DNA of 64,000 bases. Origin: Eledone cirrhosa (lineage: Eukaryota). Below, piece after piece: positions 62,996 to 64,000 of the stretch; position 1 is the first letter of the stretch; each line of letters opens with the position of its first letter. A program made the position numbers and the translations under genes. The DNA lies in the NCBI GenBank assembly GCA_964016885.1, contig OZ024741.1:108438001-108502000 (forward strand), given 5' to 3'. Below the pieces are notes generated by a model. The model was not told where the DNA came from. It did not search any database and saw only the letters and a list, made by a program, of their open reading frames with translations.

Positions 62996-63070
<75 letters not shown>

Positions 63071-63236
63071 AATTAATATCTAGTAACATATATATACATA
63101 CAGATGCATATCAATGCTAGCAAATATATAGGTTTTGTCTTAGTAACATTGTGGTTCAATGCATGGGGTTGCAGAACAATAATATGAGAGACGTAAAGTA
63201 AGAAAATTATAAAATTAACTTAATTACTAAAATATC

Positions 63237-63318
63237 ACTTCCAACTAATTAGTTTCTGGAATGGAGTAAATATATTTTCCGAAGAAGATATGGAGAAACA
63301 TTCCGTCGTTAGGGAAGT
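63237..63318 (-). ncRNA. Type I hammerhead ribozyme, family A (core CUAACGA, mutated)
   Basis: ACUUCC-CUAACGA-C-GGAAUG...CAUUCC-A-GAAA-CUAAUUAG-UU-GGAAGU. Confidence 0.7.
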
Positions 63319-63759
63319 CTATTCTCATCCAAGTTTCCAGGCAAAGCGGGGACTCTGGAAACTTGTTAAAAAATAATTCAGTGGATAGGAAATAGCAAAG
63401 CGTGGACCCGAATTCCTAGCCATTGAGAAAATCACTGCCTCTGCGTCTGTGGCAAATTAAAAAAAAATCAATCACGTGACATCGAGGTCAATCAGTGGAA
63501 AGTGGTTTGCTAATAAGACAGCGGCCTGCCTACTACCATAGCAGCAGTCATGGCCAATATTGCTCGACAAATAATTTGGAGATAATTATAAAGAATTAAT
63601 ATCTAGTAACATATATATACATACAGATGCATATCAATGCTAGCAAATATATAGGTTTTGTCTTAGTAACATTGTGGTTCAATGCATGGGGTTGCAGAAC
63701 AATAATATGAGAGACGTAAAATAAGAAAATTATAAAATTAACTTACTTACTAAAATATC

Positions 63760-63841
63760 ACTTCCAACTAATTAGTTTCTGGAGTGGAGTAAATATATTT
63801 TCCGAAGAAGATACTGAGAAACATTCCGTCGTCAGGGAAGT
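63760..63841 (-). ncRNA. Type I hammerhead ribozyme, family A (intact core)
   Basis: ACUUCC-CUGACGA-C-GGAAUG...CACUCC-A-GAAA-CUAAUUAG-UU-GGAAGU. Predicted cleavage after GUU, between 63766 and 63765. Confidence 0.82.
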
Positions 63842-64000
63842 CTATTCTCATCCAAGTTTCCAGGTAAAGCGGGGACTCTGGAAACTTGTTAAAAAATAAT
63901 TCAGTGGATAGGAAATAGCAAAGCGTGGACTGAATTCCTAGCCATTGAGAAAATCACTGCCTTCTCTCACGAGCAGAAGCCGATGTATGTATGTATGTAT

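Follow-up and report, generated by a model that had tools for sequence, protein, structure and literature searches.

A non-coding tandem repeat of Eledone cirrhosa with a predicted hammerhead in each unit and Penelope-type insertion ends: a likely non-autonomous retrozyme

The window analyzed here is a stretch of 64,000 nt from Eledone cirrhosa (GenBank assembly GCA_964016885.1, contig OZ024741.1, positions 108,438,001 to 108,502,000 of the forward strand), and it contains two insertions of one non-coding repeat. Subfamily A lies at 63064 to 63962 (minus strand) as about 1.7 head-to-tail units with a period of 523 nt, the two units being 97.6% identical over 377 nt. The cut-to-cut monomer of 523 nt (63243 to 63765, minus strand) would correspond to the predicted RNA, self-cleaved or circular, and the only open frame inside the element is a single stop-to-stop frame of 61 aa. 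At its 3′ end (63064), the insertion stops at a long end, E2 (+179 from the predicted cut), on a (TA)n tract (62937 to 63063) that is the likely target site, and its 5′ end (63962) is a truncation at monomer position 326. The 118 nt between the short end E1 (+61, 63705) and E2 (+179, 63587), here called the tail (63587 to 63704, minus strand), occur a second time at 63064 to 63181. A stretch of 28 nt at the 5′ junction (63956 to 63983, plus strand) matches 62524 to 62551 at 26 of 28 positions and was likely copied from this nearby flank; the junction stretch is unique in the genome.

Subfamily B (51903 to 52671) is 75 to 80% identical to A. Its locus consists of one hammerhead-bearing main arm with a unit of about 540 nt (51903 to 52500, minus strand), which terminates with the short end E1 next to (TA)n at 51806 to 51905, and an inverted arm (52501 to 52671, plus strand), which terminates with the long end E2 next to (TA)n at 52668 to 52742. 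The initial annotation, made from the sequence of the window, had placed three hammerhead copies in two subfamilies at 63237, 63760, and 51963 (minus strand) within units of approximately 523 to 539 bp. The coordinates and the sequences were confirmed. However, the B locus is not a tandem of two ribozymes; it holds one hammerhead and an inverted arm.

Other repeats are found in the same window. Very long GTG/GAT-rich tandem arrays with periods of 48 and 93 nt, together with a 68-nt satellite (14.7 copies, 95% match), occupy 1 to 11015 and 16313 to 17312. Broken frames lie at 59345 to 62205 (minus strand), and one of them ends in a YRYLG word, which may indicate a decayed LINE-type reverse transcriptase (RT); a 178-aa frame in this region had no match in Pfam. 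A perfect GC-rich palindrome at 51650 to 51723, within a short repeat that is also present in L100, L110, L115, and L122, looks like another inverted insertion. From 53910 onward (plus strand), there is a second, unrelated hammerhead-like motif with a short stem II and a palindromic CTAG stem III, and a nearly identical motif occurs twice in L101, 511 nt apart (8068 and 8579); these probably represent another retrozyme family. An element at 52740 to 53345 has an inverted arm between TA tracts and a hammerhead-like motif at 52944 (minus strand) with a U3-A8 core variant, and we regard it as a probable third family that inserts in the same manner. Two or more additional short repeat families, with CUGANGA...GAAA and a paired stem II, recur in unrelated loci (L070:1035, L093:8828, L105:6139, and L107:5786; L096:685, L100:7645, and L105:5766).

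The core pattern of the A and B repeat has 9,961 exact matches in the 3.0-Gb genome, and the reversed pattern, used as a control, has none. The motif is thus no chance occurrence, and that explanation was ruled out. Searches with the monomers gave 2,196 genomic candidates for A and 2,929 for B, 40 of each being scored. The 80 loci that were fetched comprise the 30 best matches to A, the 30 best matches to B, and 20 diversity picks from the first 100 pattern matches, so that they were chosen by similarity to the window copies or to the core pattern rather than randomly. These loci yielded 65 full monomers of 519 to 571 nt; representative monomers are 68 to 99% identical. The GC content of the repeat is 0.34 to 0.36. 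The largest array seen (G000:C5:11373382-11379653, represented by loci L005 to L010, L134, and L135) has about 11 units that are 99.6% homogeneous, along with an inverted arm, and its long end adjoins sequence matching the 3′ untranslated region (UTR) of a Neptune-like family.

Each unit carries a motif in the order stem I, CUGANGA, an extra C, stem II, an extra A, GAAA, a palindromic stem III, and GUU. It has the CUGANGA(H), GAAA, and NUH elements and the three helices of a type I hammerhead. The unit is non-coding, is arranged head to tail, and bears one predicted hammerhead, and at the DNA level the repeat qualifies as a non-LTR retrozyme. To this extent, the retrozyme reading of the initial annotation stands, although the length of the unit is no novelty, as discussed below. 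The stems and the cut site that it assigned were correct, but it had overlooked two additional core nucleotides, a C after A9 and an A before G12.

Copy 1 (63760 to 63841, minus strand) has an intact CUGACGA at 63835 to 63829, the extra C at 63828, the extra A at 63780, GAAA, the stem III palindrome at 63768 to 63775, and a predicted GUU cut at 63766/63765. Its CUGACGA is intact as had been stated, but the copy is not perfect, since stem II carries an A·C mismatch. Copy 2 (63237 to 63318, minus strand; predicted cut at 63243/63242) has a perfect stem II and the core change G5A. Copy 3, of subfamily B (51963 to 52044, minus strand; predicted cut at 51968/51967), has compensatory changes in stems I and II and the core change G5C. 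All three hammerheads of the window are thus defective; in the fetched loci, 43 of 54 A copies and 33 of 54 B copies keep the complete core pattern. The extra C and the extra A are invariant in 23 aligned copies, which were selected with a pattern that contained both, and the extra A separates C11.1 from G12 in both subfamilies of the window as well. Judged by sequence, the C inserted after A9 makes this a Penelope-type core; the A inserted before G12 is unusual and could impair cleavage.

The 23 copies, chosen to span the subfamilies, show pairing in 96.1% of 435 cells, and 8 of 20 pairs are altered on both sides. None of 500 shuffles reached the observed covariation score, and slid controls pair at 29 to 48%; these figures are strong, but they do not translate into a P value because the aligned sequences are related. 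Helix II is 100% paired, with one position that takes four pair types, and continues through an internal loop into a distal hairpin in which all 5 pairs vary. The covariation proposed earlier for stem II is therefore borne out across subfamilies. Folding gave a different picture, the isolated motifs being weak folders. The minimum-energy structure of the 63760 copy folded alone is not the hammerhead; the 63237 copy and one intact A copy do fold as the hammerhead, with z scores of about −0.2 to −0.6. When six monomers were folded as circles (12 shuffles each), z scores ranged from −2.3 to −7.1 for the sense strand and from −1.0 to −4.7 for the opposite strand. The structural support is covariation, not stability. 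We consider it quite likely that the hammerhead is active in some context.

Rfam gave no hammerhead match at E values up to 10 for the window element or for an intact copy, and for the whole window there was none among the 150 matches listed of 225. This result, and the homogeneity of the 11-unit array, would suit a satellite DNA spread by recombination at the DNA level, in which the hammerhead-like motif is incidental or dead. We regard that explanation as very improbable, since the copies are short insertions scattered across many contigs, their 3′ ends fixed, their 5′ ends ragged, and inversions among them, and since the pairing is compensatory.

The ends of the insertions, which the initial annotation had passed over, are the most informative feature of the repeat and are of the Penelope type. 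Of the 75 3′ ends scored in 41 A insertions, 62 coincide exactly with one of two positions counted from the predicted cut, namely +61 (E1, 34 ends) or +179 (E2, 28 ends). The 75 5′ ends of the same insertions are ragged, spreading from 1 to 483; two of them lie at +1 to +4 of the predicted cut, with no sharp pile-up. The E1/E2 pair is common to all subfamilies inspected. TA-rich sequence follows 59 of 59 E1 calls and 33 of 44 E2 calls, and most of the remaining 11 E2 calls open on CT runs or are false motif calls. A target-site duplication is not readable, because both ends lie inside (TA)n.

The two ends are combined in a regular manner. A first sample of 62 clusters contained 24 two-ended inverted insertions, every one of which has an E1 end and an E2 end (in one case after correction of a misplaced E2 call), along with 30 single-ended insertions and 8 complex clusters; like ends head to head were found in none of the complex clusters. 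A second sample, retrieved by searching with the tail, contributed 10 further loci, all with E1 and E2. Thus, all 34 inverted insertions that have both ends at E1/E2 sites use one of each, for which the expectation under independent and equal choice is approximately 0.5 to the power 34. Among the 26 two-armed insertions in the tail sample, 19 are E1+E2 and 7 have one arm ending elsewhere, and none have like ends. The B locus of the window is itself one of the E1+E2 inverted insertions.

In subfamily B, at least four CT units are found at 12 of 22 terminal E2 ends (one run being interrupted), and exactly two CT units are found at 31 of 34 internal sites, with 3 sites not parsed. We read the CT runs as probable repeated priming at the start of synthesis; alternatively, they may be compound microsatellites that existed before insertion. 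The E1 site of A also has CT units but rarely shows CT runs.

Tails continue across the cut site in 196 of 215 cases, which indicates that the template is either a circle or an uncut multimer, two forms that cannot be distinguished in DNA. The other 19 tails break near the cut site, several of them at an AT-rich palindrome. Pairs taken from a single insertion resemble each other more than matched controls do in 50 of 65 cases for arms and in 39 of 48 for units, the pairs being not independent in either comparison; two subfamilies are mixed at one locus, and neither the C5 array nor the C17 duplicates were included. This likeness fits one source per insertion. Tandem units inside one insertion usually differ by 1 to 3%.

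We lean slightly toward a circle as the main template. An alternative that we consider possible but doubtful retains the same element and the same helper and takes as template an uncut read-through multimer, with cutting that is rare or aided by protein and with no circles. The anole element, which inserts from unprocessed RNA and whose hammerhead needs protein (PMC11167929), provides a precedent for this alternative, and the 5′ ends without a pile-up at the cut, the divergence of units within an insertion, and the two extra nucleotides of the core are all in keeping with it. However, even subfamilies that share only 68% identity have kept core and stems, with compensatory changes, implying that the fold is selected, and related retrozymes yield circles in coral, mussel, and axolotl, as reported in PMC7229834.

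Several further observations concern transcription. The sequence GTCACGTGA at 63472 to 63480 (minus strand) is found in 12 of 14 aligned monomers between two flanking words; we take it to be E-box-like and the flanking words to be CCAAT-like, and the region is a possible internal promoter. A promoter scan with a bacterial model, which is not applicable here, stayed at chance level. Counts of A>G versus T>C changes, considered as an ADAR footprint, were 13:4 in A and 6:15 in B. Contigs of unrecorded kind from runs X1 and X2 (one sample) pile up on the element, but they are DNA-like and have no bearing on expression; those of X2 also cover its single-copy flank.

The genome also encodes Penelope-like elements. 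Of 10,596 GIY-YIG candidates, 150 were scored, and two long Neptune-like frames with an RT domain were found, one of which also has GIY-YIG (Pfam). They contain a C-x4-C-x2-C linker, which marks the Neptune and Nematis clades according to PMC8557442. Neptune-like elements stop in (TA)n approximately 75 to 190 nt past small hammerhead-like motifs that were read by eye. All four inverted Neptune-like copies for which both ends were found (L096, L100, L102, and L103) have one short and one long end. The repeat itself shows the 5′ truncation, inverted 5′ copy, one-end tail, and microsatellite target of Penelope elements, but it lacks the open reading frame (ORF) for RT and GIY-YIG between pseudo-LTRs that characterizes an autonomous one. 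Furthermore, none of the 80 loci continues into a transposon ORF, and the 6 loci with a Penelope ORF nearby have neighbors that come from other families and are set apart from the element. The repeat was therefore rejected as an autonomous Penelope element. The same loci bear on the possibility, raised beforehand as an argument against a retrozyme, that the monomer is always attached to a Penelope ORF as its pseudo-LTR; this is not the case in any of the 80, and a pseudo-LTR always joined to an ORF was likewise rejected.

A terminal repeat homologous to the monomer was sought with blastn and an nhmmer profile in 52 Penelope-like loci of about 8 families, 30 of which had flanks of only 1.5 kb, and none was found; the matches were ordinary insertions of the repeat. 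Given that this partner search took in 52 loci and 150 of the 10,596 GIY-YIG candidates, one could suppose that the copies are fragments of the terminal repeats of an unseen autonomous Neptune-like element and form no independent family. The layout, with promoter-like words, a hammerhead, and two ends on (TA)n, does resemble that of a pseudo-LTR, and 24 of 57 retrozyme families in Xenopus match known transposable elements, 21 of 22 being Penelope-like (Li, Clavereau and Pollet, bioRxiv 10.64898/2026.07.22.740005). We nevertheless find this reading improbable: the 80 loci do not run into an ORF, the 6 nearby ORFs belong to other families, the units stand head to tail in arrays of up to about 11, and the whole unit has been kept in many subfamilies. 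A rare ORF-attached form may still exist elsewhere in the genome.

Two of the Neptune-like families have features of their own. In one (L091, L092, L096, L099, L100, and L102), two 3′ ends lie about 65 nt apart, and the terminal repeat contains a hammerhead-like motif, read by eye, with the U3-A8 variant. In the other (L094, L095, L097, and L103), the hammerhead-like motif has a U opposite a U at the base of stem II, which is comparable to the extra C and A of the repeat.

The best explanation is that this abundant non-coding tandem repeat, with a predicted hammerhead in each unit of 520 to 570 nt, is probably a non-autonomous retrozyme moved by a Neptune-like RT/GIY-YIG endonuclease. Mobilization of the Penelope type, taken by itself, is very probable. 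It is also likely that the retrozyme originated from the terminal repeat of a Neptune-like element.

In the proposed mechanism, a promoter within one unit would drive transcription through the next unit. The hammerheads would then cut, probably as dimers via the palindromic stem III, and the monomers may be ligated into circles. The borrowed protein would nick both strands of the (TA)n tract, and cDNAs would be primed at +61 and at +179, sites that both lie inside the RNA beside short AU words that could pair with the target. Synthesis would pass the cut site, the template being a circle or an uncut multimer, to give more than one unit, and two cDNAs would join at their ragged ends to give the inverted form. 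A more specific version is offered only tentatively: a single Neptune-like RT/endonuclease complex might prime the two target strands on a circular ribozyme RNA at fixed sites separated by 118 nt, invariably one strand per site, with a telomerase-like stutter at the long site, and the ribozyme might be an active variant, with two extra nucleotides, that is missed by Rfam.

The helper enzyme of animal retrozymes has so far been argued from co-occurrence and from homology of terminal repeats. Here, the ends of the insertions themselves carry a Penelope footprint, the same as that of the ORF-bearing Neptune-like elements in the same genome. From this match, +61 and +179 are the exact RT start positions to be expected in an in vitro assay that already exists. 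The repeat would let the spread of animal retrozymes be tested, and the rule of one short and one long end constrains models both of the Penelope tail and of inversions. Because Rfam misses this hammerhead variant, the number of families of this kind is probably underestimated.

Schistosoma Sm-alpha and satellite 2 of newt and axolotl likewise carry a single hammerhead in each tandem unit, and its helix III is palindromic and weak. However, the axolotl units are 330 to 350 nt long and have canonical loop contacts, unlike those of the repeat (PMC7229834). The axolotl ribozyme HHR_Amex2 cleaves despite a mismatch where its helix II begins at the base (PMC7229834). The initial annotation had taken the metazoan examples to be shorter than the present unit, but published retrozyme consensus lengths are 51 to 972 bp (bioRxiv 10.64898/2026.07.22.740005), and hammerhead tandems of 450 bp are contained in a 2014 supplement (PMC4209133); length as a novelty was thus rejected, as 519 to 571 nt falls within the published range. 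A search of titles and the opening parts of abstracts gave no published account of this family or of a cephalopod retrozyme, and the word “ribozyme” is absent from the main text of PMC13282606.

The Penelope-type hammerhead has the consensus CUGANGAH-G...C-GAAA (Cervera and de la Peña 2014, PMC4209133). With these minimal hammerheads, the repeat shares the extra nucleotide between A9 and G10.1, the G10.1-C11.1 pair, a large helix II, and a palindromic helix III (PMC4209133), and it differs from them in the extra A before G12 and in the internal loop and covarying distal hairpin of helix II. One GAAA cell in Fig. S3 of PMC4209133 is printed as AGAAA, in a row that cannot be assigned. As to activity, 8 of 9 predicted retrozymes from Xenopus failed to cleave in vitro (bioRxiv 10.64898/2026.07.22.740005), and the Penelope hammerhead of the anole is protein dependent and dispensable for insertion (PMC11167929).

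Inverted 5′-truncated copies and a tail confined to one end are known features of Penelope-like elements (Craig et al. 2021, PMC8557442), in which the tail is bounded by two internal RT starts (Frangieh et al. 2024, PMC11167929). The repeat has in common with Neptune and Nematis elements the AT-rich or microsatellite targets and the two internal starts downstream of the hammerhead (PMC8557442, PMC11167929), as well as 5′ truncation, an inverted 5′ copy, and a one-end tail. In contrast to them, it has no ORF and no sequence match to the families examined, and its tail of approximately 118 nt is longer than the 30 to 40 nt given for published Penelope elements and the 60 to 65 nt or so in two local families.

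With non-LTR retrozymes (Cervera and de la Peña 2020, PMC7229834; bioRxiv 10.64898/2026.07.22.740005), it shares a non-coding tandem with one type I hammerhead, a GC content below 50%, thousands of copies, and the presence of Penelope-like elements in the same genome. A 2020 review states that retrozyme repeats show no conserved motif pointing to a helper (PMC7761336), and the mechanism of mobilization is left open by the 2026 preprint (bioRxiv 10.64898/2026.07.22.740005). In their available text, the two retrozyme papers (PMC7229834; bioRxiv 10.64898/2026.07.22.740005) mention target duplications and no two-site (TA)n ends or inverted arms. The present repeat differs from the described retrozymes in its Penelope-type core with an extra A, in its long two-part stem II, and in a unit longer than the 170- to 400-nt units tested in PMC7229834. 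What is new is the clear Penelope-type insertion footprint, with its two fixed 3′ ends on (TA)n; this footprint and the predicted hammerhead core set the repeat apart from these retrozymes.
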